Of a stretch of 62,586 bases of DNA, positions 23,226 to 41,790 are shown one piece after another (position 1 is the stretch's first letter; each line of letters starts with the position of its first letter). Source of the DNA: Deltaproteobacteria bacterium SM23_61 (GTDB lineage Bacteria > Desulfobacterota > SM23-61); the NCBI GenBank assembly GCA_001304105.1, contig LJUR01000002.1, positions 1 to 62,586 of the forward strand, given 5' to 3'. The notes beneath the pieces are model-generated. The model was given only the letters and a program-made list of their open reading frames with translations, was not told where the DNA came from and made no database searches. The position numbers were made by a program, and so were the translations under genes.

Positions 23226-23376
23226 ATAGTTACCTCCCTATCAGGTTATTTTGTTAAAATCAGATATTCCAAGGCTTATCCTGAAAGTCATGTGGATGAT
23301 TTGAAGTCTTCCAGGGTCGGATCTTAACCTTGAAAAGCTCCCTAAAGAGCTTCATCTTCTCTTTCCCTACTTGCCA

Positions 23377-24120
23377 TCACGGTATTATCTGCGCTTCCAA
23401 AAAAGAAGGATCATGGCAAGCAAGCACGATATCCGCCAACCCCTTCACCAGGAAAACGCTTTCGAAACCATCTACCGCATTCAAATGAATACCTGGAGCC
23501 ACTACAGGGGTCAACTCTTTGAGTTCTTCAGATACTCCTTCGGGGGGGCCAAAGTTATCTTTTAGACAGCAGAACCCTGTTATGATCGCCTTCCCTTTCT
23601 CCGTATTTACGGCAACAGACATGGTTCCGGGAGTATGGCCCGGGGTCGGAATAAGTTCTATTCCCGGAAAGATTTCCTGATAGCCTTTGACTATGACGAA
23701 ATTCACTCCGGTTAACAGGCTCTTTTTATAAGTGGGAGCCAATATGGGATGAGGGGCATAAGCAAACCTCAATTCCTCCTCCTGAACCAGGACCTTTGCA
23801 TTCTTGCACTTCTGCATATTAGCGCAATGATCCCACTGGAGGTGGGTTTGTATGATGATATCTATATCCTTCGGTTTGAGCCCCACACTTTCCAGAGACT
23901 CTTCAAAGGAAAGAATTTCCTTTGCGGGTAATCCTCTTAACTCTTTCGCAAGCTTTGCCTCCGAAGCGGTGTCAACAAGAATATTCTTATCGGCTCCTTC
24001 TATATACCATACCACGTTAGGAACCTGAATCTTTTGGCCGTAATGAAACCGATACATAAGGACCGCCTTGTCAAGCTCCATTGAAGATAAAGGCAATACC
24101 TTGATTCTGTATGTTCTCAT
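23377..24120 (-). CDS. MBL-fold metallo-hydrolase (lactonase-like)
   Basis: THLQWDH (HxHxDH variant) and TPGHTPG motifs. AGGAGG RBS upstream of the ATG. Confidence 0.85.
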   Translation of the reverse strand: MRTYRIKVLPLSSMELDKAVLMYRFHYGQKIQVPNVVWYIEGADKNILVDTASEAKLAKELRGLPAKEILSFEESLESVGLKPKDIDIIIQTHLQWDHCANMQKCKNAKVLVQEEELRFAYAPHPILAPTYKKSLLTGVNFVIVKGYQEIFPGIELIPTPGHTPGTMSVAVNTEKGKAIITGFCCLKDNFGPPEGVSEELKELTPVVAPGIHLNAVDGFESVFLVKGLADIVLACHDPSFLEAQIIP

Positions 24121-24468
24121 GCTTTCATCCTCCTATATTTCGCTTCTGGTAGACGCGGATGATGACTCCAGGAAACCTGCCCTTGAACTCTATCCTTTCA
24201 GTCAATTTTAATTCATTACAGCAAAAAATGTACCTAGTTGTCAATGTATCAATTCTCCTCGGGTCGTGCCCATCAGGTATTGAATATTGCTCCCGCCAAT
24301 GGTGTGCGAAGTCGAGATTCGGCCACTCCCGCCCCTGTCTGCCAGATAAAGCATTGATCCATACGAATCTAGCCTTCAATCCCGTCTTGCCAAAATCCGT
24401 GAGAAATCCAATAGGATGATAAAAAGGGTTAGAAGCCTGGGGAATATCTTCTAGATCCTTGTAATGAC

Positions 24469-24513
24469 TGGTGGACGGTAATGGATTTGAACCTCTGACC
24501 TCCGGTATGCGAG
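24469..24513 (-). pseudogene. Decayed 3' fragment of a tRNA (Ala-like: CGC anticodon position, U70), preceded by a terminator-like hairpin
   Basis: 38/45 nt identical to the 3' part of the tRNA at 39774-39850. The T-stem no longer pairs. The flank (aaaaaggg-hairpin-ccttgtaatgac) is homologous to the flanks at 34385-34431 and 39722-39773. Confidence 0.7.
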
Positions 24514-24949
24514 GGTTTCAGTATGAGCCGGAAGACATCGATTTTATTCGCCTTTTATCATCTTATAGCCTATTAAATTCAACAACTTAGCATCGTCGGA
24601 CGGGCAAATCAATCCAGCATAGAACCGGCCCCTTGCCAACAACCATTCATTTCAATAGGCTCCTTACCATTTTTCAATCTAATCCAACCCCAGAGCGCAA
24701 AATTCAACTTTCCCTTTCATTATACAGCCGTCCCGGCGGGGCAGGAATTCCTCCCAGAAGCAGTAATTTGATGAAAAAATTTTTATTTTTGACGATAATT
24801 AGGACGAATAGCCTTAGAAAGATATATCCGCCAACTCTAGCGGGCGGAGAAATTTGGGGGCCGCCTGATCGATGAAAAACTGATGTGTTAGCCCGACTTT
24901 CCGGCGGTCAAGAATTTCAATTCAGATCAAAAATTGGGAGGGGGTTTCC

Positions 24950-25948
24950 ATGAAAAGATTGCTTTTGATCCTGACCCTGATTGTCTTTCAGCTGATAGCA
25001 TTTACGGTATGCCTGAATGCGAAGCAGCATGATAAAAGGGAACTCACAAACAAGGTCATGGAGCTGTCGGGAATGAATGACCAGATTCGCCAGATACCGG
25101 CTTTTGTCCAAATAGGCGTCTCCAGCCGAAAGGGGTCGACCCCCCCCGACTTATATAATATTCTTGAACCCGAAATTGTGAAAGCTTTTCAACCGGAAAA
25201 AATTCTAAAAGGGGTATCCAGGGAGATTGAAAACAAACTTGATTTAAGGACCCTACAAGATGTCCTCACCTGGCTCGAGTCTCCCCTGGGGCAGAAGATC
25301 ACCGCCATAGAGGAGAGCAACTCGACACCCGAAGCATTGCAGGGGATGAAAGAATTTGCCGCCTTGATGAAGAAAACACCGCCGCCCAAGAGGCGCTCAG
25401 ACCTGGTCAAAAGGTTCAACAGGGCGACGAAACCGGCAGAATGGATTGTCGAAATACAAATGTCCTCGATCCTTGCTTTGACAACGGCATTGAATTCCAG
25501 CCTGCCGAAAGAAAAACGGGGGAATCTAGCCGAGATAAGAAAAAAAATCGAGCAGCTCCGCCCGAAAGCACAGAAGGAGGCAGAGTCAAATTCGGTGATG
25601 GGTTCCTTCTACGCCTACAGAACGTTGACGGATGAAGAGTTTCAACGCTATGTTTTATTCGCAGAGTCCGCCAGCGCGAAACGCTTCCACAATGTTTTTC
25701 TGAATGCACTCAAAAATGAAATGCAAATGGCTTGTCTGAAGATTGGGAAATCTTTGGGCGAGAAAATAATAAAATTGCCTCGCGAGCAAGAGGTAATGGT
25801 TACCGGCAAGATTGTCGTACACTTGAAAGACGGTAGGACTCTGGTGTGGGATAACTACACGGAAAAGAACGACCGCTATTGCACATTTATTGCCGGCGGT
25901 GAGCTTTGTATAAGTAAAAGCGATGTAGCCTCTGTTGGGCGGAACTAA
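24950..25948 (+). CDS. Secreted hypothetical protein (332 aa)
   Basis: Signal peptide MKRLLLILTLIVFQLIAFTVCLNA, GGAGGGGG RBS, and no confidently recognised domain. Confidence 0.6.
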   Translation: MKRLLLILTLIVFQLIAFTVCLNAKQHDKRELTNKVMELSGMNDQIRQIPAFVQIGVSSRKGSTPPDLYNILEPEIVKAFQPEKILKGVSREIENKLDLRTLQDVLTWLESPLGQKITAIEESNSTPEALQGMKEFAALMKKTPPPKRRSDLVKRFNRATKPAEWIVEIQMSSILALTTALNSSLPKEKRGNLAEIRKKIEQLRPKAQKEAESNSVMGSFYAYRTLTDEEFQRYVLFAESASAKRFHNVFLNALKNEMQMACLKIGKSLGEKIIKLPREQEVMVTGKIVVHLKDGRTLVWDNYTEKNDRYCTFIAGGELCISKSDVASVGRN

Positions 25949-25969
25949 TAAAGGATTTCTCTCCCAATA

Positions 25970-26240
25970 TCTTCTCGTTGAGAAACTTGGAGGAATCTTC
26001 AAGGAAGCGAAAACTCCCTGTATGGCCTTGGCTCTTATCCCCACCCGTGTCCATAGACTGCCCCCTTATTTCAGATGAATCGATATAGCTTTGCGAGCAG
26101 CGCGGTAGGCCGGCTGAAAGCTCAAATGGAGGGAAACCGGCAGACAAAAAAAGCGCATCCAGAAAATCACAGAAAATCTCAATAAGGGTCAAGCCCAGAC
26201 CTATAGGGGGCGAAAAGGGTAAGCCTTGCCGATGGGCGGA
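25970..26240. repeat. Repeat element B (homolog of 17308-17600)
   Basis: See element A. In addition, a 12-mer TCTTGCCGAGAT (26284-26295) is identical to the start of the 88-bp eamA repeat. Confidence 0.7.
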
Positions 26241-26302
26241 AGGAAGGGGTTGGCATGGGAAACAGGCCAATATTTCCCATGCCTCTTGCCGAGATTTGAA
26301 TC

Positions 26303-27406
26303 TCAGAAGGTCACGATACTGCGGGCCACTTCGCCCTTGATGAGGTTATCATAAGCCTCGTTGATCTGGGCGAAAGGATATTTCCGGGTGAGAAGTTCAT
26401 CGAGTTTTAATTTCCCGGCTTTATACATTTCCATCAACATCATGGTGTCCTGCCGGATCCTGGCGGATCCATAGAGCGATCCGGTCAGCGTCTTTTCTTC
26501 GAATACGAGAGCCATGATGGGAACCGCTACTTCTTTCGTCAGGGGCACCACACCAACGGCCACGCACATTCCTCGTTTGGCCAGACAGTCGAAGGCCTGA
26601 CGGACCGTCTCGGGAGATCCTATCGCCTCGAAGGCATAGTCGACTCCCCGGCCGTCGGTCAAAGCCCTGACCGCTTCCACGGCATTCTTCTTCGAGGCGT
26701 CAACAAAATGGGTAGCCCCAAAAGTCTTAGCATAATCGAGCTTTTTCGCATTGATATCAACGGCGATGATCTTAGCCGCACCCGCAATCGCCGAGCCCTG
26801 GATGATATTCAACCCGATTCCGCCGGCTCCAAAAACGACCGAAGTACTTCCCGGCTTGACCTTGGCGCAGTTGATGGCGGCGCCGACCCCGGTGATGACT
26901 CCGCAGCCAAGGAGAACAGCAATCTCCAAGGGAAAATCCTGGGGGATCTTGAGGGCGGATCCCTCGGGAATCACCGTGTATTCCGAAAAGGTCGAGGCCC
27001 CGGCAAAGTGTTTGATTTCCTGGCCTTTGTACTTGAAACGGGTGGTCCCATCGAGGAGCTGGCCAGTCGAGCGGATCTGAGTGCCAGCCGGACAGAGGGC
27101 GGGGCGTCCATTACTGCAGTATTCGCAGATCCCGCAGGAAAGACGCCACATGACGATGATATGATCTCCGGGTTTCACGGCCGTCACCCCCGGCCCGACC
27201 TCAGCCACGATGCCGGAACCCTCGTGTCCGAGAATGGACGGAAAGGGAGCGAAGAGATGACCGGTCATGACATGATAGTCGCTATGGCAAATGCCTGCGG
27301 CGACCAGTTTGACGAGAACTTCCCCTGTATGGGGCTTCTCCACATCCACTTCTTGGATGTCCAACCTCTTTCCCGCTTCCCAAAATATCGCTGCTTTCGA
27401 TTTCAT
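26303..27406 (-). CDS. Zinc-dependent alcohol dehydrogenase (class III/medium-chain type)
   Basis: GICHSDYH, GHEGSGIV, and the structural-zinc Cys cluster CGICEYCSNGRPALC. The ATG at 27406 is preceded by GGAGG. Confidence 0.9.
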   Translation of the reverse strand: MKSKAAIFWEAGKRLDIQEVDVEKPHTGEVLVKLVAAGICHSDYHVMTGHLFAPFPSILGHEGSGIVAEVGPGVTAVKPGDHIIVMWRLSCGICEYCSNGRPALCPAGTQIRSTGQLLDGTTRFKYKGQEIKHFAGASTFSEYTVIPEGSALKIPQDFPLEIAVLLGCGVITGVGAAINCAKVKPGSTSVVFGAGGIGLNIIQGSAIAGAAKIIAVDINAKKLDYAKTFGATHFVDASKKNAVEAVRALTDGRGVDYAFEAIGSPETVRQAFDCLAKRGMCVAVGVVPLTKEVAVPIMALVFEEKTLTGSLYGSARIRQDTMMLMEMYKAGKLKLDELLTRKYPFAQINEAYDNLIKGEVARSIVTF

Positions 27407-27611
27407 AATGGAACCTCCTTTCATAGTATCTATGGTGCTGCGGTCGGTTCGGGACTATCATACTAAAAAGGAAATAAAAAAGGGGAATTTTTTTCATGAA
27501 AAAGAATAAATAAAAAAAGGCTGATTCCTCAAGGGCTTGAGCTTTGGACTTCGTCTCTTCGGCAAAAAATACTCCATGGGAAATAGCTTCATTATGCCCC
27601 TAAATGGAACA

Positions 27612-27670
27612 ATTTTCTCGAAAGATTTGGAGGAAATCTCAAGGAAACAAAGCCCCCCTTTTTAGCCTAA
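27612..27670. repeat. Repeat element C (partial homolog of the 5' segment of element B)
   Basis: ttctcgaaagatttggaggaaatctcaaggaaacaaag here matches tctcgttgagaaacttggaggaatcttcaaggaagcgaaa at 25970-26010. Confidence 0.6.
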
Positions 27671-27833
27671 GCTCCTAGGCCCAGCCACTTTTCAAACCAC
27701 GAAACTGCAAAAGTAAAGGTCGTCCCCGAAATTGACTACAAAAGCAAACAGGCGTATATTAAAACCCGCTGCAGGTCAGCCGGTTTGAGGCCTCAAAGGA
27801 GTTTTAATTTCAATAATAATATGGAGGAGTAAA

Positions 27834-29117
27834 GTGATAAGCCTGTCACCGGATGAAAAGGAAATGTTGGCGGGTAATCAAGGCCTCGATAAGAAAAGGG
27901 CCATGGAACTACTTGTAAAATACACGGAAGCTTTGGGCGCTCGGAAATTAGTAAATACAAATAATGTCACCGTCATATTGGGAGCTATTCCAGACGTAGG
28001 GATTATAAGGAAGATTGTACCCACCCTTGACGTTGATGAGATTGCCTCAAAATTCTTCCTTGACAGCGACGATCGTGTAGTCGTTAGCCGCGTAAAGGCA
28101 TTTACAACCACTAACGCCTATTTCTATGACCAAAGATACCCTGATCTTCAAAGGGGAGGAAAAGAAGCTACTGAGTTGTCCAAACAAATTGCGGATTACT
28201 GCGCTCGAATTGGTATCGTACACCTTTCCACATGTACACCATATCAGTCGGGAAATATTCCCACTAAAGGGGAACATTGTGCATGGACTGAATCCTCGGC
28301 TATTGCCTATTGTAATGCGATATTAGGTGCCCGAACGAACATTGAAGGGGTGCAGAGCTCCTTTGCAAGTGCGATTACAGGGAAGACGCCCCTTTGGGGA
28401 ATGCACCTGGATGAAAACAGATATGGAAAGGTATCCGTCAAAATAGAATTGAGTATGGACAATATTCAGGATTGGTATTTGATGGGTTACTACGTGGGTA
28501 TGCACGTCGGATTGGATATTCCTGTGTATGTGAATTCGAAGAGGACCCCTAATCTTAATATGCTCATGGCCCTTTGCGCCGCTGGGATTTCCTCAGGCAG
28601 CATTGTTATGTTTCATATTGTCGGGGTAACTCCAGAGGCTCCAACCTTTGAAATTGCCACTGGAAATCGCAAGTTGGTAAAGAGCCTGAATTTTGGGGAG
28701 CGGGAGCGTAGGGTCGCTTACGAAAAATTGAACCACGCAAGTAGAGGTGATGTGGATATCGTCATGCTCGGCTGTCCGCATTACAGTCTTGAGCGACTAT
28801 CATCGGTCTCAGAGCTGCTTAAAGGAAAGAGAATTCATCCTAATGTGGCTCTTTACATAACGACTTGTCGAACAAACAAATACGTGGCGGACGGGCTGGG
28901 ATTCACGGAGACAATTACTAAAGCTGGTGGGATCCTTTTCGAAGATTCCTGTGGGACACTGTTTGATGTGGATCGCTCAAAAGTGCTCGCCACGGATTCC
29001 GCTAAGCTGGTTCATTATGTCCCTGGGATGACGGGCTTAAAGAACATATGGTTCGGCCCTACGGAGCAATGCATTGAGGCTGCGATCACAGGGAAATGGA
29101 GAGGGGAATTAACATGA
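27834..29117 (+). CDS. Aconitase X catalytic subunit (DUF521 family)
   Basis: About 427 aa. N-terminus LSPDEKEMLAGNQG...AMELLVKYTEALGA, plus CTPYQ and CAWTESSA motifs typical of DUF521/AcnX. GTG start with a GGAGG RBS. Confidence 0.8.
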   Translation: MISLSPDEKEMLAGNQGLDKKRAMELLVKYTEALGARKLVNTNNVTVILGAIPDVGIIRKIVPTLDVDEIASKFFLDSDDRVVVSRVKAFTTTNAYFYDQRYPDLQRGGKEATELSKQIADYCARIGIVHLSTCTPYQSGNIPTKGEHCAWTESSAIAYCNAILGARTNIEGVQSSFASAITGKTPLWGMHLDENRYGKVSVKIELSMDNIQDWYLMGYYVGMHVGLDIPVYVNSKRTPNLNMLMALCAAGISSGSIVMFHIVGVTPEAPTFEIATGNRKLVKSLNFGERERRVAYEKLNHASRGDVDIVMLGCPHYSLERLSSVSELLKGKRIHPNVALYITTCRTNKYVADGLGFTETITKAGGILFEDSCGTLFDVDRSKVLATDSAKLVHYVPGMTGLKNIWFGPTEQCIEAAITGKWRGELT

Positions 29118-29527
29118 AAACTATTATTCTAAAGGGCCGTAAAATTTATGGCGGGATGGCCGAAGGGGAAGCCCTTGTCATGAAAGGCGGACTAGGCGGC
29201 ATGGGGGTTTTTGACGTTGAAAGCGGGACTGTCATTGAACTGGGGCATCCTTGGATAAATGAAATAGTTGGCGGGAAGATCTTAGTATTCAAGACAGGAA
29301 AGGGTTCCTCTTCATGGTCAATGTGGCACCAGACCTTGAGGTTTATGGGTAAGGGGCCGCTGGCTCACATTGTTGCTGAGTGCAATCCACAAACCGCCCT
29401 GGGGGCAGTGGTAGCTCGGGTTCCCTCCGTTACAGATCTTGATAAAGATCCCACGGAGGTGATTTCGACAGGAGACTGGGTGAAGGTGGATGCTGATTCT
29501 GGTTTAGTTGAGGTGAGGAAGAAGTAA
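29114..29527 (+). CDS. Aconitase X swivel-domain subunit (DUF126 family)
   Basis: ATGA overlap with the upstream stop. GRKIYGGMAEGEALV...GKILVFKTGKGSSS is typical of DUF126. Confidence 0.8.
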   Translation: MKTIILKGRKIYGGMAEGEALVMKGGLGGMGVFDVESGTVIELGHPWINEIVGGKILVFKTGKGSSSWSMWHQTLRFMGKGPLAHIVAECNPQTALGAVVARVPSVTDLDKDPTEVISTGDWVKVDADSGLVEVRKK

Positions 29528-29639
29528 GCTATATACGCTAACACCTTGAGACCAGGAAAGGGGGGCTAGAGTACACTTACTACTCTTCGATCCAGCATAA
29601 ACCCGGAAGGCAATGATTAGGGGTAGAAATACAAAAAAA

Positions 29640-29666
29640 GTAGGGCCAGAAATGGCCCTACTTTTT
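29640..29666. terminator. Bidirectional intrinsic terminator
   Basis: AAAAAAA-GTAGGGCC-agaaat-GGCCCTAC-TTTTT, between convergent genes. Confidence 0.8.
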
Positions 29667-29671
29667 GAGCG

Positions 29672-29962
29672 TTATGTCCTCGATTCGGGCTTCGATATTG
29701 TTAAAAATTCACCTTCAGGTGTTTCCTGGCTATCGATAACCATTTCGTCTAGCACTGGGGCTAAATCGGTCCCTATAAGCAGTAGCTTCTTTCCCTCTTC
29801 AGTTGCCACGACTTGATCTCCTTCCCTTTCTTTGTCGAAAACCAGCTGCAACCGCTTTGGCTCCGAAGAAGAAGTAACAATCCTGATAGCCGCTTCTGGA
29901 TTACTCGTTTTCTTCAGTACTTCTTTCATCCTTTCTTTCGCATTTGTAGTCACGGTTATCAT
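29672..29962 (-). CDS. HesB/IscA-like fold protein lacking the Cys ligands
   Basis: MITVTTNAKERMKEVLKK...AIRIV...L.LVFD...D.VV pattern of the HesB/IscA family, with no cysteines. GGAGG RBS. Confidence 0.5.
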   Translation of the reverse strand: MITVTTNAKERMKEVLKKTSNPEAAIRIVTSSSEPKRLQLVFDKEREGDQVVATEEGKKLLLIGTDLAPVLDEMVIDSQETPEGEFLTISKPESRT

Positions 29963-30434
29963 GGGTCACCTCCCTGGTCTAGGCTTTTATCATTTTTAGA
30001 TTCACTTCACCGGCCTCTGATGATATTACTCTCTTGCGGTTCTTGGGTAAGTTAAAGTTGACAGAACTCAAACCATCTGAAAGTTACAGGACTTCAGGCA
30101 AGATGTCAGGGAATGAAGCAGATAGGAGGGGATATATCGAACCCCCAAAAAATTGCGGATTGGGGACTTCTCATAAAATATGATATTGTATAAGTATTAG
30201 TTAGTCAAGCCCCCTTTTCCGAATGTTTTTGCAAACAGGCCCTTTTCCGATAGCTATCAGAAAAAAATAAGCCTTTGCATGAACTACTGATCAAAACCCG
30301 CGAAATTTCTTTAAACTCCCGGATAACAAGTTCAGGAAGTACTTCACAAGCTCTATACCCAAAAAGCAAGGGCGATTAAGGGGCCACGGGCTTAGTCTAT
30401 TTTTTAAAAGAGAATTCTCCGGCCTATCATTGTC

Positions 30435-31580
30435 TTAGTCAATCCCGGTAGGTATATTTTCCTTGCGGTAAATGACCAGGCGATCACCGGGTTGGAGGTA
30501 CACCCTGGGGTCCAGGCGATTCCAGATGATGAGGGCTGATAGTGGGATATTAAACCGCTCGGCAATGGACGCAAGGGTATCCCCTTTCTTAACCACGTAG
30601 GTTCTTTCTTTTTCATCCACCATCAAATTCTTTAGAAGGGGCTGAAAACGAGCTTGAAAACCCTTGGAGGCCCCCCTGGGAAGCAGAATGCCATGGCGTC
30701 CGGCTGGTAGGTAATGGCCACGGATCTCGGGATTCAAATCCTTGATTACCTTAAAATGGGTGCTTGCTGCCTGAGCAATTAGTTTGAGGGAAACATTCTG
30801 AAAGAGGTCGATTTCGATGCGGTCGAAGGCAAGAGGTGGATAGTAGTCCTCGTCTGAAAGCCGAAAACCATATCGGGGGGGATCGGAGATGATCAGCTTG
30901 ACTACGACAATCCGCAGGACATAACGCTGGGTCTCGAGCGGCAGGTAAAGGTAATAGTAATTATCGACACCCTGCGTCACGATTGCGGCCATGAGTCCGT
31001 CTTCACCCATATTATAGGCGGCAGCAGCAAGCGTCCATGATCCAAAAGCCCCATGAAGATCTTTGAAGTATTTTATCGCCGCCCGGGTGGAGGCAAAGAT
31101 ATTTCTTCTCTCATCGATATGCTTGTTGACCACGAGGCCATATTTTCGGCCAGTGGCCTCAATGAATTGCCAAAACCCCTTGGCTCCCTTTCGTGAGCCT
31201 GCGTGAGGACGCAGAGCACTCTCAGCAATGGCAACGTATTTAAGGTCATCCGGCATTCCTGCCTCTTTGAGCTTTTCTTCAATATACGGGAGGTAGCGCC
31301 GGGAACGTTTCAACCAAAGAATAACCTGCGGCCGGTCCCATACTGTTAGCAGGAGCTCCTTCTCAAGCCGCTCCCGGACTTCTTGTGTTTCAAGCGGAAC
31401 TCCTTCACCACAAAAATCCAAAGGACCACTAATATTCAGAGACGAAACTAGGGATGGGAACGAAGAGGGGTTTAGACTTTGACCATGAACGTTTGACCAG
31501 GGGAAAAGCACTACACCCACTAGAATAATGGGAATCCATTTCCCGATGGCTACCCCCTTTCTCCAACCTGAGCTATCCAT
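30435..31580 (-). CDS. Lytic transglycosylase (SLT domain) with a C-terminal LysM domain (MltD-like)
   Basis: AIAESALRPHAGSRKGAKGFWQF (SLT catalytic Glu motif) and YVVKKGDTLASIAERFNIPLSALIIWN (LysM). Signal peptide present. Confidence 0.85.
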   Translation of the reverse strand: MDSSGWRKGVAIGKWIPIILVGVVLFPWSNVHGQSLNPSSFPSLVSSLNISGPLDFCGEGVPLETQEVRERLEKELLLTVWDRPQVILWLKRSRRYLPYIEEKLKEAGMPDDLKYVAIAESALRPHAGSRKGAKGFWQFIEATGRKYGLVVNKHIDERRNIFASTRAAIKYFKDLHGAFGSWTLAAAAYNMGEDGLMAAIVTQGVDNYYYLYLPLETQRYVLRIVVVKLIISDPPRYGFRLSDEDYYPPLAFDRIEIDLFQNVSLKLIAQAASTHFKVIKDLNPEIRGHYLPAGRHGILLPRGASKGFQARFQPLLKNLMVDEKERTYVVKKGDTLASIAERFNIPLSALIIWNRLDPRVYLQPGDRLVIYRKENIPTGID

Positions 31581-32342
31581 TCACATTCCTCATCTTTATA
31601 GCAGACTCTTTTTTATATAATCCTTGCTCTTCGGATGCACATTCAACAAATCAATCCCACGCTATTTATGGATGAAACTCGGCACCTTGGATGAATGAAA
31701 ATGGTTCTTGCATGAGCGGTCTGTGGGTTACAAGGCCTCTATTAGGGAAGCGCTGAAAGAGGCCCGCTTTTTCTCCGTAGGGCGAAATGCACAGCGTAAG
31801 ACACATTTGTGGCCGTGGCAGTTCACCGCCGAGGAAATACCCCCCCTCCTTCTCATTTTGTGCCTCAGAAGGTTAGAGGTTTTGTTTTTGGGTTTACCAA
31901 GCTACAGACAGGAGGGATAACACCAACCAAAAAATACTCTTATGGCAATCGGTAGTCAACGGGAAAATTGCCTCCCCAAGATGCCCTTATTTAATGGCCA
32001 AAATTGATAATTTCCATTTCAAGTAGTGCATTATGAAGGAAAATCCCTAAAACAACACCACAGGAAGTAATGGTCCCTGCTTGTCTTTACACGTTCTGTC
32101 AACGAAATTACCTGCTATTGCACCTAATGGCAGGGCCTTGGTGGCAGGGTTGAGGATTGAATCCTTTCCTCCGGTCCCATCCCCTGGAGATGCCTACGGG
32201 GTTCTATCCTAAAGAGATCCCTTTATATTCCGGGCGTAGACCTGATGAATGGGGATGAAGGCTCCACCAAGCCTACAGTTTGGGAAAGTCCTGAAGGCTA
32301 AGGATTATTGGTAGAAATCACGCATCCAAATGCAACAAATCA

Positions 32343-33263
32343 TCATTCATTTAAACCGAGCAATTCTCTGGGATTCTGATAAACCATCTGCCGAATCGCC
32401 TCCGGGTCCAGCCCATGATAATGAAGGAGGCCCGCAAAGAGTCGCAACATCTCAGGGGCAGGGGGTGTCCAACTGAAAAAAGCATCAGTGGCCAAGACAC
32501 ATCGATGATCTCCAATCTTTCTGATTACCTCAATGAATTGGGAAACTTTTACTACTTGGAGAAGGATATGGAGACAGGTGAGCTCAATATAAAATCCCAT
32601 TCCTGCAACCTGTTCAATTTCCTGTAGGGAAGCCCCAAGGGTTAGGGGATGAGTAAAAATTAACTTCTTGAATCCAACAGACTTGCAATATTCCGCAAGC
32701 TTCAGAGTCTCCCCGGGCGAAATATGACCCGTTCCCACAATCAGGTCGGCCTTTTGGGCGATTCCAATAATCTCCTGAACTTCCTTTTTCAGAGTTCCTG
32801 ACGGGTTGACCAAAATAATGCCTTTTTCAGGCGTCAGTTCCTGGTAAAAAGGAAGGTGCCTGCGAAAATATTTCCCCCCATGGTGTTCGATATCAAACCT
32901 GGCCCCCCAAGTCGGGAACCAGAGGACCTTGGCCCCCAGTTGAACGGCTGACTCGACCGCCCAGGGGCTTAACCCACCGACAGGGGGGTTAAGGGTTAGG
33001 CTTCCGAAAATTTTCACTGCGGGGAATTCTATCTGTAATGCATAGGCCCGCTCCATCGTGGGCCATAGATGGCTCTTTATTACGAATCCACCCATTCTCA
33101 ATTTCAGCGCCGCTTCCGCCCATTCTGGGTCTGTGACTCGCCCCTTGAACTCCAAGCTGACTTCCGGATATCCGTGGGCATGCAAATCTATAGCCCCCTG
33201 GATGAATCCATCCTCTATTCTCTTGGTGCCCAACACTGTTTCCGCAGCAAGAATACTGCTCAT
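32343..33263 (-). CDS. Amidohydrolase-superfamily (TIM-barrel metal-dependent hydrolase-like) protein
   Basis: AIDLHAHGYPE near the N-terminus, later GTGHISP and ATDAF motifs. The exact family was not determined. Confidence 0.55.
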   Translation of the reverse strand: MSSILAAETVLGTKRIEDGFIQGAIDLHAHGYPEVSLEFKGRVTDPEWAEAALKLRMGGFVIKSHLWPTMERAYALQIEFPAVKIFGSLTLNPPVGGLSPWAVESAVQLGAKVLWFPTWGARFDIEHHGGKYFRRHLPFYQELTPEKGIILVNPSGTLKKEVQEIIGIAQKADLIVGTGHISPGETLKLAEYCKSVGFKKLIFTHPLTLGASLQEIEQVAGMGFYIELTCLHILLQVVKVSQFIEVIRKIGDHRCVLATDAFFSWTPPAPEMLRLFAGLLHYHGLDPEAIRQMVYQNPRELLGLNE

Positions 33264-33643
33264 ACTTTATCTTCCGTCACCCGCTCTTTGGGAAAACCCT
33301 GCGGGCTCGCTATGATTGAAATGACTCGTTCCGGGCAGCCCTTGGATATCCGTCCTAATGATATTGAGGAAAGGAGAAATCAAAAATGTTAGGCTATCCG
33401 GAGCCGAATACGGCCCCCTCCCGTTTAAGTGTCATTGACCCTTTTGAGATGGCTCATTTGAACTACAATCTCATTCATCAGGGCAATTAATATCACAAAT
33501 TCCAAATCAAAAATAGGAAAAGGGGTCAGTCCATGAATTTAGGAATATCCCGTTCCGAGAAGGAATTATTCCTCTTTTCATGGACTGCCCCCTTTACTCA
33601 CCCTCGCCGCGGGGGCAGCGAGGGGAGGGGAAGCTCTGCGCGG

Positions 33644-33991
33644 TCAGCGTGCCGCGACGACGCGGATCTCGACCAGATACTTGGGGTGCGCGAGCCGCGC
33701 CTCGACACACGCCCTCGCCGGCGTCTGCCCCGGCACGACCCACTTGTCCCACACCGAATTTATCTCCTCGAAGTAGCGGATGTCGGCCAGCCAGATGGTG
33801 GCCATCAGCAGCTTCGACTTGTCGCTGCCACAATCCGCCAATAGTTTGTCTATCTGGTCAAGGATCTGGCCGGTCTGCGCCGCGGCATCCGGGGTCGGGT
33901 GCTCGGCGACGACGCCGGCGGTATAGACAGTGTCGCCGTGGACGACGGCCTGGCTCAGGCGTGGGCCAACTTTCTTGCGTTCGATGCTCAT
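33644..33991 (-). CDS. RidA/YjgF-family protein
   Basis: LSQAVVHGDTVYTAGVV...GQILDQIDKLL...ARACVEARLAHPKYLVEI. A local high-GC patch. Confidence 0.85.
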   Translation of the reverse strand: MSIERKKVGPRLSQAVVHGDTVYTAGVVAEHPTPDAAAQTGQILDQIDKLLADCGSDKSKLLMATIWLADIRYFEEINSVWDKWVVPGQTPARACVEARLAHPKYLVEIRVVAAR

Positions 33992-34431
33992 GCGTGCATT
34001 CCTCCCGAGGGATTCAACTCAACAGACCCCAAGTTGATAAGAACTCGATTTTGGGTGGGTTGAAAATACCAAAAAGGTAATCGTGTGTCAAGGGTTTCTG
34101 AGACTTTTGGCCTTTTGGTTTGCGTTGAAGCTTGAATCTCAGAACCGAACACCAAATGGAAACTACAACAAGTGGGGGCATGCCCAGGCTTGTTTAAGGT
34201 TATAAGTATGTGCCACTGTCTGCACTTGCCCAGGATTCAAGGAATGAAAAGTATCTCCAACCCTCGGTTACTGACCGGAATCTACACCTTCCGGGAAATT
34301 ATGTTGACCCACGAGTTCAGGAAGTACTTGATCCGATTGCCCATACCGCTAGACCTTTTCCACCCCCTCTCAAAACCATGACACCAATAAAAAAGGGCTG
34401 CAAGAATTAACTTGCAACCCCTTGTTATGAC

Positions 34432-34453
34432 TGGTAGGCGGTAGAGGAATTGA
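34432..34453 (-). repeat. 22-nt exact copy of the 3' end of tRNA-Val (att-like), with a homologous terminator-hairpin flank
   Basis: tggtaggcggtagaggaattga is identical to 39774-39795. The flank ccccttgt(t/a)atg plus the hairpin is also conserved. Confidence 0.85.
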
Positions 34454-34642
34454 CAATATCAAGATGATAAGGGGTTATTTTTACTTATGGTTAAAAGGCT
34501 TATGTCCACCGCATGGACGCTGAAAGCCTCCCCTGAGTCTTTAAACGCAGTCTGTGTTTGACACCATTAGGGCACCGGCAGCACCGGAAAACTGTTGAAC
34601 CCGCTGAAAAGCGCCTGCCGGCTTTTTGTGACTTCCTTTCAT

Positions 34643-34906
34643 TCAGCCCATGGCTTCTGCTAATGGCCCCTTCGGTTTTCCAATTCCTTTGAAATCGATG
34701 TAATGTCTGCTGCCCGATCGGATAGCTTCATTCACAATCACCACTGTTCCGATGTTTGTTTCAAACTGATGCTGGTTCATAGGCCAATACTTCTCTGTTA
34801 TGCCACTACCAGACCATTCGCGCAATCCAACGGAAGGGGGATTATAGTTTACGGTAACCGGTATTTCCAAGAATCCAGAAATCATGATGCCTTTCCATTT
34901 TCCCAT
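34643..34906 (-). CDS. Hypothetical protein (87 aa)
   Basis: ORF only, with no recognisable motif. Confidence 0.35.
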   Translation of the reverse strand: MGKWKGIMISGFLEIPVTVNYNPPSVGLREWSGSGITEKYWPMNQHQFETNIGTVVIVNEAIRSGSRHYIDFKGIGKPKGPLAEAMG

Positions 34907-35207
34907 CGTCCACTCTCCTCGCGTTTTTGAGTGATATTATAACCGATTGGCGCGGCGTACTCAACAATAATCCAGGATTCCCACCCTCTCCTTCAATGGA
35001 CCTTTTTGCTGGAAGGCGGTTTGATCATATACAAATTCAAGATTCTTTTCAAGACGTTCCATGAACCACCCCTGACCGTTCATCCACAGCAAATCTATTC
35101 TTCCGTTCTCAAAAGCGCCTGGCGAATCTTTCCTCTTGATTCGCAACTTCTTTTCCAATATACTCTCACTATCCAGCTTTATAATCCATCCAAACAGGAG
35201 GCCCAAA

Positions 35208-35507
35208 GTGGCTAAAAAACCCATGACCAAATCTCTGATCGTTTCCCATTTTGCGGGCAAGTTCGAGCTTTCCAAGAAGGCAGCAGCTGGAATCATTGAT
35301 GAGGTGGCAGCCTTGGCGGTTTCCGAAACCAAGAAGGCGGGATCCTTTACCCTTCCTGGAATTGGAAAACTTGTCCTGGTCAAGAGGAAAGCGCGTATGG
35401 GGCGTAATCCGGCTACGGGAGCAACGATTAAGATTCCCGCCAAGACCGTGGTGAAGATGCGAGTGGCGAAGGCGGCTAAAGAGGCGATTGTACCGGGGAA
35501 GAAATAA
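35208..35507 (+). CDS. HU/IHF-family DNA-binding protein
   Basis: LPGIGKLVLVKRKARMGRNPATGATIKIPAKTVVKMR (the HU beta-arm). The GTG start lies 7 nt after AGGAGG. Confidence 0.9.
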   Translation: MAKKPMTKSLIVSHFAGKFELSKKAAAGIIDEVAALAVSETKKAGSFTLPGIGKLVLVKRKARMGRNPATGATIKIPAKTVVKMRVAKAAKEAIVPGKK

Positions 35508-35593
35508 GGAAGCAGGGGGAATTCTCATCTCTGCGCTTGGAGATAACCATTCGTAAAAAAAGTATACAAAAAGCATAAGCGGAGGTTGTTTTT

Positions 35594-35794
35594 GTGCCAG
35601 AAGGAAAAGTGAAGTGGTTCAACGAGAAGAAGGGCTTTGGTTTCATCGAGCAGGATGGCGGAAAGGACCTTTTTGTCCATTATACCGCCATAACCAGTGA
35701 AGGCTTCAAGACCCTGTCGGAAGGCCAGCGGGTAAGTTTTGAGGTCGAAGAGACAACCAAAGGCCCCAAGGCTAAAAACGTCCAGGTCATTTAA
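35594..35794 (+). CDS. Cold-shock protein (CspA family)
   Basis: [27 protein letters not shown] carries RNP1/RNP2 of the CSD. Confidence 0.95.
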
Positions 35795-35816
35795 TTATTC
35801 GGGATCAAGCCTAATG

Positions 35817-35848
35817 AAAAGGACATCTCGGTTTTGGGATGTCCTTTT
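35817..35848 (+). terminator. Intrinsic terminator after the csp gene
   Basis: AAAGGACATC-tcggttttgg-GATGTCCTTT followed by a T-rich tail. Confidence 0.7.
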
Positions 35849-35961
35849 CTATCTTCTAAAAACCTTCCGACAATACAGTCTCGCCCAAGGTCTCTTCGGT
35901 TGGTCATGCCCTTGAGGAAAGGATGATTTCTTTTCAATTCTTGATAAAATATAGGTCTAAA

Positions 35962-36279
35962 CTAATTTTCCTTTATAACGCAAACCCAATTCGGATAATC
36001 ATCAGCCTTCCCTTCATTGTTTTTCCAGTGGAGGGGTTGAAGGTTCTGGAGCTCATCTTTTCCTCCCTTGGAAATCGGCAAAATATGATCAACTTCCCAA
36101 CCGAATTGGCTATCCTTGCCAAAGGAAGATTTAACCATCACGGCACCGCAAGCATCTTTCCTGAATTTTTCGGGATTAGATCCAGCTATGGGGTGAGCTT
36201 TTCCCCAAACAGCTTCAATAATGGGGGTTCTAAATTGTTGGCCAAATTTATTCGTATTCCTTTCCCGTTCCATGCTCAA
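35962..36279 (-). CDS. Small stand-alone HNH endonuclease
   Basis: WEVDHILPISKGGKDELQNLQPLHWKNN (H-N-H motif). Confidence 0.85.
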   Translation of the reverse strand: MSMERERNTNKFGQQFRTPIIEAVWGKAHPIAGSNPEKFRKDACGAVMVKSSFGKDSQFGWEVDHILPISKGGKDELQNLQPLHWKNNEGKADDYPNWVCVIKEN

Positions 36280-36460
36280 CTCCTCCTTTTCTCCTGGTCC
36301 AAGATTGCTCCCCTTTTGGCTATTATATCCCTTTTTTATATCTTGGCTCTGGTTCTATTTCTATTCTCTATTAAATTATAGGGCAAATCGCAACGCTTGT
36401 CAGGGTATTTTTTGAAAAGTAAATGGCTAATTTTTGTATTCCTGAAAGATCGGTGATCTG

Positions 36461-38068
36461 ATGACTATGCGTGAGGAAATAGGGACTGAGGTAGTTGATG
36501 CGGCCCAAAGGTTGGAGGAGCAAATGAAGGTGGAACCCATCGATTCCGAGGAACAACCGGAACTAGCAACCGAGGACGTAAGAAAGGCGGTCAATCCCGT
36601 GCTTATGTACTTGCGCGCGATGAGTTCTGTTCCTCTGCTGGCGCGCGAAGAGGAGATAGAGATCGCCAAAAGGATCGAAGAGGGGGAAAAGGAAGTGATC
36701 GACGCGGTCCTATCTTCCCCTTTGGCCATCAAGGAGATCGTTCAGCTTGGCAAGCGCTTCAGGTCGAAGAAACTATGGGCCAACGAATTCCAGGGATCGG
36801 AGGAAAATTATTTTGTTCAAGAAGATTTCAATGTGCCGCCTACCCTTTCCCTAATCGACCGGATCAAGAAGCTAGATGAGCGATATCGGCAGGTTCAAGA
36901 AAAACTCGATAAAGGGCAAATCTCGGAGTCCAATCTGGTTCGGCTGAATAGGCAGCAGAGGAGATACAAAGGAAAGATTGTTTCGTCGCTGGAAGATCTG
37001 AATGGGCGGACAAAGTATGTCGATAAAATTACCCAAAAACTTAAAGGGCTAGCCGAGAAGGTGAAGAAAGCCGAAAATGAGATCCAAAAAGTCCAGGATC
37101 GGTGTAAGATACCTTTGGGTCAATTTCAAGACTTCCTCCAGATGATGAAGAAGCCCCAAGGGTTACGTGCGAGGATAAGCAAGTCGAGGCTGAGCAAGGA
37201 GGAGCAAGAGGAGTACCGCCGGGTGATTAAAAATGCCAAGCATAAGATTCGCCTTGTGGAGGAGGAATCCAATCTGTCCGTCGAGGAATTAAAGCAAACC
37301 ATTCGCGTCATAGAAAGCGGTGAGACAAAGGCCGAGTTAGCCAAAAATGCGCTAATCGAAGCCAATCTGCGTCTGGTCGTTTCCATCGCCAAAAGGTATG
37401 TGAATCGGGGCCTGCACTTCCTGGATCTGATCCAGGAGGGAAACATTGGGCTGATGAATGCTGTAGACAAATTTGACTATAAACGCGGTTATAGGTTCAG
37501 TACGTACGCCACCTGGTGGATTCGCCAGGCAGTCTCCCGGTCGATTGCGGATCAAGCACGGACGATTCGTGTCCCCGTGCACATGATTGAAAAGATCAAC
37601 AAGCTGCATCAAGCCTCGCGTTACCTCGTCCAAAGGCTGGGAAAAGAGCCTACATTCGAAGAGATTGGCGGGCATATGGGTATTTCCTCGGAAGAGGTGC
37701 GCAAGGTTGTCACTATTGCGAGGCAACCGATATCCCTGGAGACTCCCATCTCGGAGGAAGGGGACAGCGGTCTGATGGATTTTATTGAGGATAAGAGCAG
37801 AGTCTCTCCCGCAGAGGCAACAGCCCATCTAGACCTCACGGAGCAAACTCGTAAAATTCTACCTACTTTAACACCTAGGGAAGAAAAAATCTTGAAAATG
37901 CGTTTTGGGATCGACGAGAAAGGCGGTCATACTCTTGAGGAGGTAGGAAAGGTCTTTGACGTCACCCGGGAGCGCATCCGGCAAATTGAGGCCAAGGCGT
38001 TACGCAAGCTGCGCCACCCGTCCCGTTCCAAGCAGCTGAAGGTCATTTGGAAAGAGTGGCGATCGTGA
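36461..38068 (+). CDS. rpoD: RpoD-like (group 1/2) sigma-70 factor
   Basis: Region 1.2 is [31 protein letters not shown]. Region 2 is [34 protein letters not shown]. Region 4.2 is [35 protein letters not shown] content is lower than the backbone. Confidence 0.9.
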
Positions 38069-38169
38069 AAATATCGGCTCCTTTGCTGAGATCAATCCAA
38101 CCAAGTTCTCAGTTTCATGTAGCCTCGTCTCGTTGAGATCAGATCCCTTAAAACACCCATGATGGGGAG

Positions 38170-38436
38170 CTATTTTTTTGCGCCAGCAGCTTGACCCCGT
38201 TGAATCCTGAAAACACCAAGCTTAAGAATTTTCTGGCCGGCCTGGAGGATTCCTTCCAAGGGGCCCATATCAACAGCGGTGACCAGGAAAAGATGAACCG
38301 CTTCGTCCAGGGCTTTCCGGGCTTCATCGGGTGTCTTCCCGGAGCTCATGACATCCAAGGGCATGGCATGGGCGACAAATTGATCCCCTTCTTTCCGGAT
38401 TTGAAAGGTGTGTTCGATATCCTGAGAAGCTGGCAT
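38170..38436 (-). CDS. HicB-like (UPF0150) antitoxin-fold protein, orphan
   Basis: FVAHAMPLDVMSSGKTPDEARKALDEAVHLFL resembles the HicB N-terminal domain. No adjacent HicA-like ORF. Confidence 0.5.
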   Translation of the reverse strand: MPASQDIEHTFQIRKEGDQFVAHAMPLDVMSSGKTPDEARKALDEAVHLFLVTAVDMGPLEGILQAGQKILKLGVFRIQRGQAAGAKK

Positions 38437-38613
38437 TTCCCCCTCCTTACTCGCCGGATCTTAAGGGGGGATTCTACTAAAAAGAGGTTACAGCCCAAAA
38501 TCTGTAACCCCTTGAGAAAGGCAATCGGCATCTTCGGAGAGAAATCTACCTTGTTGCCGCAAGGATTCTATGGTATTCATAATGAGTATTTTAATTTTCC
38601 AGGGAGAGTGCGA

Positions 38614-38889
38614 ATGAACGTTCAGAAAATATTTGATGCGCTGCATGAGGATCAAGAGAATAGCGAATTGAGCATAATCTGCGGGGAGCTGGAGGAGCAA
38701 GGATACAAGGTCCGGCTTGACGGCAGGGATGTTACCTCAGCGGAAATTTTGGATAGCGATCATGAGGACCTTGAGGACAAAGTGGGTCCTCTGATTGTCT
38801 CTCTTTACAAGGACGGCTCTTTGGAGCAGGAGTTTACCCTGGAGTTTATTGATGACCACGAGGTCGTGATAGAGCGGAAAATCGAATAG
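38614..38889 (+). CDS. Small acidic hypothetical protein (91 aa)
   Basis: ATG at 38614 preceded by AGGGAGAG. The upstream part of ORF 38191..38889 is antisense to the HicB-like gene. Confidence 0.45.
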   Translation: MNVQKIFDALHEDQENSELSIICGELEEQGYKVRLDGRDVTSAEILDSDHEDLEDKVGPLIVSLYKDGSLEQEFTLEFIDDHEVVIERKIE

Positions 38890-39085
38890 GTCAGCCTTCC
38901 GTTATGCGTGTGATTCTCCATCCACGGATCTTTTAGACAATTTTTGGGCTTCGTTAAATCCATTTTCTTCTAAGCCAAGGATTGAAAACGGCCTTACGGT
39001 GAGGATTAATGAAGACCGCTCCCTCCTCATTTTTCAGGATATGCTATTCTTCCCTGACCTTGGCAACCCCGATTCAATGCCGCAA

Positions 39086-39652
39086 TTACCCATGTATTTT
39101 TTTGAGTAACCAGGCCATCCTTTGCCCGAGCGTTTTTACAAGCCGCATACCCTCTTCATCTTTTTCTACTTCTCCCCTCTCCCTCCCCATTCCCATCGCC
39201 CGACCAACAAGAATCATTTCTCCACTAAGGAAAAAATGGTTCATGCTGTCAATAGTATGAACTGCACCTGAGCGACGCACGGCAGCTACCGCAGCGCCGA
39301 CCTTGTTCTTAAACATCCTGCCATTGGCCCTAGAAACATAACCGGTGCGATCAATGAGGGCCTTCATTTCAGGCGTAACATCATTAAAATAAACGGGCGA
39401 CCCCAGGATAATCCCCTCTGCCCCGAGCATTTTCTCGATATACTCATTCGCTGCGTCATTCTTTACGGCGCAGCGCTGGTCCTTATTTTCAATACACTTA
39501 TAACAGGCGATGCAGCCCCGGATTTCCTTTTCCGAAAGTTGCACCAATTCGGTTCCGATGCCTTCTTTTTCGAGTTCGTTGAAAACACCATTGATGAGAA
39601 TCAAAGTATTGCCATCCTTTCTCGGGCTTCCGTTGAAGGCAACTACTTTCAT
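39086..39652 (-). CDS. Flavodoxin-like NAD(P)H-dependent FMN reductase / iron-sulfur flavoprotein-like protein
   Basis: MKVVAFNGSPRKDGNT... GCIACYKC ... ILGSPVYFNDV, typical of the NADPH-dependent FMN reductase/Isf family. Confidence 0.85.
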   Translation of the reverse strand: MKVVAFNGSPRKDGNTLILINGVFNELEKEGIGTELVQLSEKEIRGCIACYKCIENKDQRCAVKNDAANEYIEKMLGAEGIILGSPVYFNDVTPEMKALIDRTGYVSRANGRMFKNKVGAAVAAVRRSGAVHTIDSMNHFFLSGEMILVGRAMGMGRERGEVEKDEEGMRLVKTLGQRMAWLLKKIHG

Positions 39653-39723
39653 TTACCTTTCCTCCTTTTCGATTTTTTTGCTCATTTTCCAAATTCCGTT
39701 AGAAATCCGTTAGAAAAACCATT

Positions 39724-39763
39724 AAAAAAGGGGTTAGAAGCCTGGAAAATGCCTTCTAACCCC
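39724..39763 (-). terminator. Intrinsic terminator downstream of tRNA-Val
   Basis: Minus strand reads GGGGTTAGAAG-loop-CTTCTAACCCC followed by TTTTTT. Confidence 0.75.
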
Positions 39764-39773
39764 TTGTAATGTT

Positions 39774-39850
39774 TGGTAGGCGGTAGAGGAATTGAACCTC
39801 CGACCTCCGGTATGTGAGACCGGCGCTCTAACCAACTGAGCTAACCGCCC
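39774..39850 (-). tRNA. tRNA-Val (anticodon CAC), 77 nt with encoded CCA
   Basis: The cloverleaf folds by hand: acceptor GGGCGGT/ACCGCCU (G1-U72), D-arm AGCTCAGTTGGTTAGAGC, anticodon stem CCGGT/ACCGG with loop CU-CAC-AU, and T-arm GGAGGTTCAATTCCTCT. Confidence 0.9.
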
Positions 39851-39965
39851 ATAAAAGGGAGTGACTAAAGTCAGCGAAAGTGAGTGAAAACAAATTCAGG
39901 ATACAAAAAAAGTGGGAAAATGTCTAGAGGTTTTTTGAGGGGAGAGGGAGTCTCTCCAGCACCCC

Positions 39966-39983
39966 GCACCCAGCACCCTGCCC
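39966..39983. repeat. Left arm of an 18-bp perfect inverted repeat (GGGCAGGGTGCTGGGTGC)
   Basis: Reverse complement of 41791-41808. The pair brackets the K+ channel/cNMP gene pair. Confidence 0.85.
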
Positions 39984-40086
39984 TCTTTTTTTTATCAAAC
40001 AATCTCCTTGAAATCCTTCCATTATTTGGTAGAATGGGCTGATTTTCGGGAGAAACAGGGAAAATTTCCATCCTCCATTTGCACCC

Positions 40087-41278: not shown

Positions 41279-41782
41279 ATGGAAGAGATCGCCTTTCTGA
41301 AGAAAATCCCCATTCTCCAGGATCTAAACGAAGAGGAGCTCGGCCAGTTCCTGAAGATCGCCCGCCGGGTCCGCTTCCCCAAGGGCCAGCCGATCCTCAC
41401 CGAAGGACAGACCGGCGAGACGATGTACATCATGGTAGAAGGAATGGTGGAAATCTCCAAGAGCCTGGTCATGATCAAAGGGCAGGAAAATTCAAGGGAC
41501 CGGGAAAAGGTCCTGACCAAACTCTCGGCCGAAGACCACGCCATCTTCGGTGAGGTCGCCCTTTTTGAGCAGAGCCAGAGAACGGCCACCGTCATTGCCT
41601 TGACCGATTGCCTGCTCTTGGAGATTTCCAAGGCTGATTTTCTAAAAATGGCCGCGGAAAACACCCGCATCGGGTACAAGATCACCCGGAATATCGCCCA
41701 GCTTCTCTGCTCCCGGCTGCGGAAGGCAGACGAGGATACCGTAAAGCTGACCACGGCCTTGTCGATGGCGCTAAGCCGATGA
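41279..41782 (+). CDS. Cyclic-nucleotide-binding domain protein
   Basis: cNMP-binding fold motif FGEVALF...RTATVIA. No HTH domain is fused. Confidence 0.85.
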   Translation: MEEIAFLKKIPILQDLNEEELGQFLKIARRVRFPKGQPILTEGQTGETMYIMVEGMVEISKSLVMIKGQENSRDREKVLTKLSAEDHAIFGEVALFEQSQRTATVIALTDCLLLEISKADFLKMAAENTRIGYKITRNIAQLLCSRLRKADEDTVKLTTALSMALSR

Positions 41783-41790
41783 AAACAGGG

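Follow-up and report, generated by a model that had tools for sequence, protein, structure and literature searches.

Genomic islands that integrate into a tRNA gene (tDNA) restore the gene that they split and leave a displaced fragment of it behind, as catalogued in the Islander survey (Hudson, Lau & Williams 2015; PMC4383910). Islands of the class in which the attachment site of the element (attP) is centred on the anticodon make up about half of the mapped tDNA islands (PMC4383910), and among 3919 islands, tandem arrays with at least two islands number 125 and those with at least three number 4, where the software counts no island of a tandem that lacks an integrase gene (PMC4383910). Here, we describe a 62,586-nt stretch of the genome of Deltaproteobacteria bacterium SM23_61 (contig LJUR01000002.1; hereafter, the window), in which one intact tRNA-Val(CAC) gene is accompanied by two displaced fragments of its 3′ end. 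We consider it likely that the window holds a decayed tandem array of tRNA-Val-integrated islands, the integrases of which have since been lost.

The tRNA-Val(CAC) gene, which the initial annotation of this DNA had already recognised, has its CCA encoded and occupies positions 39774-39850 on the minus strand (ARAGORN; Rfam tRNA, 70.7 bits, E 1.9e-13); it is the sole tRNA gene detected by ARAGORN across the window. In the array, the gene forms the attB/attL end, with its 3′ half (39774-39818) as the repeated core. Directly downstream is a module (39686-39773, minus strand) in which the linker CCCCTTGTAATGTT is followed by a terminator hairpin and a T-run; another 35 nt or so of flank, with the repeats CCGTTAGAAAT and CCGTTAGAAAA, completes it. 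The hairpin (39727-39767) has about 13 pairs and folds at -26.4 kcal/mol (z -5.6). Three loci on the minus strand share the layout of A-run, hairpin, linker and tRNA 3′ end, a pattern first noticed in the sequence alone and now recovered both by blastn and by a module profile. Homology is not confined to the tRNA ends: 24387-24513 aligns with 39686-39818 (133 columns, 77%, E 6e-24) and 34383-34453 with 39718-39795 (78 columns, 76%, E 9e-10; both blastn), and either alignment spans the A-run, the hairpin and a CCCCTTGTAATG-like linker. The nhmmer profile, built from 11 modules, finds only these three sites in the window, all in the orientation of the tRNA, and no fourth, more decayed fragment to the left of the outermost one.

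The fragment nearer to the tRNA gene, fragment B (34432-34453, minus strand), is an exact 22-nt copy of the tRNA-Val 3′ end, CCA included. This 22-mer, TGGTAGGCGGTAGAGGAATTGA, occurs at exactly two sites in the window (34432-34453 and 39774-39795), and no third site is found with up to 3 mismatches, where none is expected either (100 shuffles). The flank of fragment B (34385-34431, minus strand) comprises an A-run, an intact hairpin (GGGCTGCAAG...CTTGCAACCCC) of -26.2 kcal/mol (z -5.55), which a terminator scan also reports (34423-34392), and the linker CCCCTTGTTATGAC. Fragment A (24469-24513, minus strand) is a decayed copy of the 45-nt 3′ half of tRNA-Val that ends at the anticodon loop; it differs from the tRNA at 7 of the 45 positions, which agrees with the 84% identity (84.4%) reported before. 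Its flank (24387-24468, minus strand; blastn) has a linker (TCCTTGTAATGAC) and a hairpin that is homologous in sequence and has lost its folding (-6.5 kcal/mol, z -0.05). For the 11 hairpin modules, RNAalifold returned 5 outer pairs only, with stems of unequal length that MAFFT could not align, and we took hairpin strength from individual folds instead. Since Rfam yields no partial tRNA match at either fragment (E<=1 over the whole window), covariance models are of no help in typing them.

We compared the locus with other stretches, numbered L001-L027, among them the same locus in related Syntrophaceae-like metagenome-assembled genomes (MAGs) and metagenome contigs, as found by a metagenome pattern scan, a scan of genomes for the adjoining K+ channel gene and integrase look-ups. 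One and the same stop point in the anticodon loop, ...GGTATGTGAG, is common to fragment A, to those of L004, L009 and L011 and to two of the three in L010; the third L010 fragment, 15 nt from the tRNA gene, ends no more than 2 nt away from it. Fragment B is the exception, as the end concerned has been lost. Its counterpart in L011 is a full 45-nt half that ends at the anticodon loop and is followed by GGCAT, with the same right flank (CAATATCAAGATGATAAGGGGTT...) and, on the left, a related one (TGACACCA followed by an A-run); relative to it, fragment B lacks 28 nt (ACCTCCGACCTCCGGTATGTGAGGGCAT in L011). In L010, the right flank of fragment B follows a fragment truncated at the other side. As the alignments stand, fragment B is a 45-nt fragment of the anticodon type minus 28 nt. 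The exact identity of the 22-nt copy thus stands, whereas the notion that it represents a separate, short type of attachment site does not: a T-loop-type site is ruled out by the L011 and L010 counterparts. The rearranged fragments in L010 and the 28-nt deletion in the window indicate that such arrays are eroded by deletions.

The closest genomes are the MAGs of L010-L012 (an uncultured delta proteobacterium, a Deltaproteobacteria bacterium and a Syntrophaceae bacterium). In all, the tRNA-Val/K+ channel locus occurs in seven configurations. On the 5′ side of the tRNA gene, the genes for the K+ channel, a cyclic-nucleotide-monophosphate (cNMP)-binding protein, OsmC and adenine deaminase are kept (72-92% nucleotide identity), and the pair of tRNA-Val and adjoining K+ channel gene recurs in L005-L007, L010-L012 and L021. 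On the 3′ side, similarity to the window ends about 27 nt beyond the tRNA in every relative. What follows there is present in some relatives and absent from others, as the comparison of synteny proposed at the outset could reveal. The tRNA gene is succeeded by genes for a sigma-54 activator and an ATP-binding cassette (ABC) transporter in L005-L007, and by an integrase pseudogene with two in-frame stops, the end of which lies 48 nt from the tRNA, in L008. L010 carries three further tRNA fragments, one 15 nt from the tRNA gene and two farther out, one of the three being truncated at its 5′ end, and L011 carries one, about 4 kb from the tRNA gene; neither array includes an integrase gene. The module downstream of tRNA-Val is common to fragment A (24387-24513) and the fragment in L009 (L009 1716-1853; blastn). 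Beside tRNA-Val in the window, the K+ channel and cNMP-binding genes are flanked by a 29-nt inverted repeat (39963-39991 and 41782-41810; 90% complementary).

An intact element occupies the same site in L021-L023, where genes for the excisionase Xis (HTH_17) and a 359-aa tyrosine integrase, the hairpin, the linker and tRNA-Val follow one another in that order. The island in L021 (metagenome contig Ga0568866_0010550) also encodes RepO, a DnaB-like ATPase, a primase-polymerase, RadC and a helix-turn-helix (HTH) protein. Its integrase, with the domains Int_N, Phage_int_SAM_5 and Phage_integrase, has a reading frame that enters the hairpin, GGGGTTACAGCTAGTGTGTAACCCC, behind which come the linker, TTGTTATTAC, and the 3′ end of the tRNA. 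L021 is direct evidence that the hairpin, the linker and the 3′ part of the tRNA travel with elements of its family, and it bears out the earlier suggestion of an attP region with a replacement tRNA end plus terminator. As the element brings all three along, each fragment in the window has a terminator-like flank of its own. The integrase belongs to a family with 2867 homologues at E<=1e-20. In L024-L027, a 74%-identical integrase (L024 9164-10240) with an HTH_17 partner is found beside yceG/mraZ, where ARAGORN reports no tRNA gene; the family may also use a non-tRNA target.

Lower GC between 19.3 and 39.8 kb, as reported initially, is confirmed by segment: 18997-24420, 24514-34384 and 34454-39721 have 47-48% GC, versus 54-57% in the flanks, and the GC content at third codon positions of their genes is roughly 0.47-0.65, versus mostly 0.6-0.85. 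No intact integrase, excisionase, replication or transfer gene occurs in 18997-39721 (Pfam and NCBIfam searches, tblastn), and an active element, which would combine an intact integrase or excisionase with replication, transfer or packaging genes, is not present there. The putative integrase remnant pointed out near 22.3 kb is indeed readable (22290-22490, plus strand) as some 65 aa of the C-terminus of a tyrosine integrase, with one frameshift and the catalytic Tyr replaced: it reads HDLRHTYAS and, after the frameshift, ELFGYRALAITQRHSHP. Its scores are weak, both against Pfam Phage_integrase (E 7e-4, 19.8 bits, below cutoff) and against the L021 integrase (tblastn; 56% over 25 aa, E 3.5e-4), and it lies outside both intervals bounded by repeats. 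In orientation, it agrees with the L008 and L021 integrases. Queries with the L008 integrase (C-terminus and full length) and the L021 island proteins, aimed at integrase remnants beside each module, returned 22290-22367 only.

These observations can be accommodated in the following scheme. In a clade of uncultured Syntrophaceae-like deltaproteobacteria, integrative elements of one family, with tyrosine integrases, would use the tRNA-Val(CAC) gene beside the K+ channel gene as their attachment site in the chromosome. Past its integrase gene, such an element would carry a hairpin terminator, a linker of about 10-14 nt and a tRNA copy of about 45 nt that begins at the anticodon loop and ends with the CCA. 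Recombination of attP with the tRNA gene, at the anticodon loop to judge by the extent of the repeats, would rebuild a complete tRNA gene with the copy of the element and leave the old 3′ half, its own terminator included, at the far side of the insert. Further rounds of integration would produce a stack with fragment A outermost, fragment B intermediate and the intact tRNA gene last. By its degree of sequence decay, fragment A may be the oldest copy; since a displaced fragment, too, can be a target of integration, the order in an array need not follow age. Later on, the integrases and mobility genes would have been deleted, save the remnant of about 65 aa at 22.3 kb, fragment B would have lost its 28 nt and the hairpin of fragment A would have decayed, by which some 21 kb of lower-GC DNA would now be fixed and immobile.

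The initial annotation took fragment A to be Ala-like, as it has T70 (U70 in the tRNA) and, where the anticodon would be, CGC; the fragment would then derive from a tRNA-Ala(CGC) gene, or from an element that targets one, in an array of mixed targets. Two alleles of tRNA-Val among the relatives speak to this. Type 1 (T arm GGAGG/CCTCT) is found in the window, L005, L010, L011 and L021, and type 2 (GATGG/CCATT, T loop TTCAAAT) in L008; the L009 fragment is identical to type 2, and two L010 fragments are nearly so. Fragment A has the T-arm 3′ strand (CCATT) and the T loop (TTCAAAT) of type 2, that is, of valine sequences with CAC and C70 (the L008 tRNA, the L009 and L010 fragments), and homology to tRNA-Val and the Val-type fragment in L009 extends through its flank, hairpin and linker. 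The two Ala-like bases are single substitutions, two among the 6-7 private or mixed ones that this fragment has accumulated along with a T-stem mismatch and a decayed hairpin, and no Rfam tRNA match is seen there at E<=1, all of which makes an Ala origin extremely improbable. The T arm of fragment A is mixed, type 2 at its 3′ side and type 1 at its 5′ side. We considered a crossover inside the T loop; the informative sites are too few, and such a crossover clashes with the 45-nt identity block. Nor is it at all probable that the fragments are tandem duplicates of the tRNA-Val gene and its terminator that decayed as unrelated DNA was inserted, without any site-specific integration. Duplication would account for homology that takes in the downstream linker and terminator; against it, no fragment in any genome keeps the 5′ half, all of them (fragment B excepted) stop at or within 2 nt of one position in the anticodon loop, the hairpin and linker of L008 and L021 are part of an integrase-bearing insert, and integrases of one family are found at exactly this site.

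Another explanation, which we hold possible and clearly second to the one preferred, is an old array that was passed down by descent or came in as a single block: the integrations recorded by the fragments would have taken place in a shared ancestor, or else in a donor, and the genes between them would be mostly resident or later acquired, shuffled by deletion and by recombination between cores, rather than original cargo. Several observations pull in this direction, and away from islands stacked and retained as such in the window. The junction of fragment B with its right flank is common to the window, L010 and L011, so that, going by sequence, the event behind fragment B may predate the divergence of the three lineages. 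Deletion and rearrangement within arrays are evident from the L010 fragment 15 nt from the tRNA gene and from another one truncated at the other side. Mobility genes are gone from the window, and neither repeat-bounded interval (24514-39721) has an integrase, excisionase or replication gene. Between the integrase remnant and fragment A are 1.9 kb that hold the RraA-like and metallo-β-lactamase (MBL) genes, whereas in L008 and L021 the integrase is adjacent to the tRNA gene, and a tblastn search with all L021 island proteins matches the window at 22293-22367 only. The module profile finds no distal repeat to bound the 19.0-24.4 kb segment. Neither an empty site nor an otherwise identical strain was found for the intervals of the window; the sediment metagenome contigs L001-L003 encode identical proteins in the gene order of the window. 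Lastly, the module of a cold-shock domain (CSD) protein and a sigma-70 factor occurs, as does the 87-aa open reading frame (ORF), in relatives without tRNA fragments; the block of the 87-aa ORF, HU, CSD protein, HNH protein and sigma-70 factor is kept in L018-L020 with no tRNA fragment in view, and could be old resident DNA instead of cargo. On the other hand, the three intervals are uniform in composition and distinct from both flanks, and the contents between the repeats differ almost wholly among the window, L010 and L011, which fits independent gain better. An inherited array refines the reading of a decayed tandem array rather than excluding it. The tandem array from tRNA-targeted integrations that had been proposed from the sequence is accordingly upheld by the islands and fragments of the relatives, whereas the present content of the intervals need not be that of the integrated islands.

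Within the array so understood, the interval between fragment B and the tRNA gene (34454-39721; 5.3 kb, 47.2% GC) encodes the 87-aa ORF product (34643-34906, minus strand; no Pfam or NCBIfam match), an HU-like protein (35136-35507, plus), CspA (35594-35794, plus), an HNH protein (35962-36279, minus), an RpoD-like sigma factor without region 1.1 (36461-38068, plus), a 232-aa ORF product and a flavin mononucleotide (FMN) reductase (39086-39652, minus). About 520 nt at its left end (34454-34973) abut the anticodon-loop boundary of the tRNA fragment and are conserved (blastn; 83% in L011, 90% in L010); because this sequence is kept beside the fragment in three genomes, it is probably, on comparative grounds, the fragment-side (attR-side) end of one element family. 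The interval between fragments A and B (24514-34384; 9.9 kb, 48.4% GC) has genes for a secreted 332-aa protein, a zinc-dependent alcohol dehydrogenase, the large and small subunits of AcnX, an Fe-S protein, an SLT-LysM protein, a DUF6282 protein and RidA, as well as a Y1-transposase remnant (26062-26196, plus). The segment to the left of fragment A (18997-24420; 48.4% GC), which is probably an older island without a recognisable distal repeat, has genes for a GrdB-like selenoprotein with a selenocysteine insertion sequence (SECIS), a GrdG-like subunit, the integrase remnant, an RraA-like aldolase and an MBL hydrolase. Throughout, the gene content between and to the left of the repeats looks metabolic or housekeeping-like.

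The left edge of that segment coincides with a break in synteny relative to L016 (85-87% nucleotide identity). There, the TctC gene (window 10676-11509) directly adjoins the gene for a major facilitator superfamily (MFS) transporter (window 17783-18996); in the window, these two genes are 6 kb apart and the low-GC segment follows the MFS gene. The adjacency in L016 places the break at about 19.0 kb, in agreement with the left edge of 19.3 kb proposed initially. A search for the left boundary via MFS homologues did not find the ancestral neighbour of tRNA-Val: the closest homologues are on short contigs, and L017 is not syntenic.

The sigma factor has 535 aa and scores above the NCBIfam RpoD cutoff, though the N-terminal third (region 1.1) is absent. 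It belongs to a family of about 530 aa (63-90% identity) that is distinct from the canonical RpoD of 583 aa, and in the window, L013, L014 and L018-L020 alike, its gene is always preceded by one for a cold-shock protein. The CSD and sigma-70 genes, often with those for HU, HNH and the 87-aa ORF product, form a block that recurs in several relatives in varied contexts: it is inside the tRNA-Val array of L010, on the 3′ side of the transfer-messenger RNA (tmRNA) gene, with transposases, in L013, and present twice on one 14-kb contig (L019). The block is not always associated with tDNA, none being in view in L014 and L018-L020. Its varied contexts would fit mobile cargo of some age as well as resident DNA that came to lie between repeats. 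That it is genuine cargo of tDNA-targeting integrative elements is suggested by its sites, namely between a fragment and the tRNA gene in the window, in the L010 array and next to the tmRNA gene in L013; we regard this as rather doubtful. If true, islands would spread an alternative primary-like sigma factor along with a nucleoid and a cold-shock protein among Syntrophales-like bacteria. The leader of the CspA gene gives a sub-threshold match to the cspA thermoregulator (Rfam; 35479-35849).

Elsewhere in the window, a 91-nt direct repeat (10324-10414 and 17608-17698; 99% identity) corresponds to the 3′ end of an EamA transporter gene (9520-10413). It encloses 10415-17607, with the TctC gene, a transposase remnant and a block of 36.8% GC that encodes a 741-aa WD40 protein (11954-14179, minus) and a 430-aa Sel1 plus ankyrin protein (15848-17140, minus). 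This looks like a second, recent insertion that regenerated the 3′ end of a gene; because the TctC and MFS genes are adjacent in L016, rearrangement was also involved. Two decayed remnants of IS200/RayT-like Y1 transposases (17194-17590 and 26062-26196, plus strand), about 80% identical to one another, have a DnaA_C-like C-terminus (LFRMNRYSSA...); neither remnant itself matches Pfam, and an intact-looking homologue occurs in the tRNA-Val array of L011 (L011 7-648). Intergenic, G/C-rich palindromes (CCCTCCCCCCTCGAGGGGGAGGG...) that resemble repetitive extragenic palindromic (REP) elements are found at 44350-44414, 51032-51102, 55125-55161 and 58372-58435, one being kept in L007 (4303-4367); a link with the RayT-like transposase remnants is conceivable. 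The GrdB-family selenoprotein (450 aa; 19346-20698, minus) has an in-frame TGA (19610-19612) in the motif STUGSSTRCG; directly downstream of this TGA is a SECIS_4-like hairpin (19572-19609; 30 bits, below the gathering score), and the gene adjoins that for a GrdG/FarE-like subunit (20728-22062).

The array adds tRNA-Val(CAC)/K+ channel as an integration hotspot in a poorly studied clade of uncultured deltaproteobacteria and names an integrase family that uses the site. It shows how far an array can decay, by deleted integrases, an internally deleted attachment-site fragment and a melted terminator, and where island finders that demand one integrase per island reach their limit. For annotation, some 21 kb should be flagged as probably acquired.

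As in the Islander tDNA islands, an intact tDNA stands at one end and displaced 3′ fragments lie in direct orientation, both of which are seen in the window; likewise, the replacement 3′ part comes from the element, a single tDNA can have more than one fragment, and a tyrosine integrase gene is found beside the tDNA, here in the relatives L008 (as a pseudogene) and L021-L023. Unlike those islands, the two intervals of the window have no integrase gene, which makes them a relic that Islander-type software would reject, and their cargo is metabolic or housekeeping-like rather than akin to that of phages or integrative and conjugative elements. Tyrosine integrases reportedly use attachment sites in the anticodon loop, termed class A by Williams in 2002. 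The identity block in the window, about 45 nt from the anticodon loop to the tRNA 3′ end, resembles such sites, whereas the homology runs some 50-90 nt past the tRNA end, over linker, terminator and flank, and exceeds a minimal attachment-site core. With the L021 element, the far end (attR) of which lies off its contig, the window shares the tRNA target, the K+ channel neighbour and the layout of integrase, hairpin, linker and tRNA; it differs in that no L021 gene is detectable but for the integrase remnant, and in the hairpin sequences. The array is, then, a further example of a well-known phenomenon, without a new mechanism, and mildly unusual only in its decay and its sigma-factor block.

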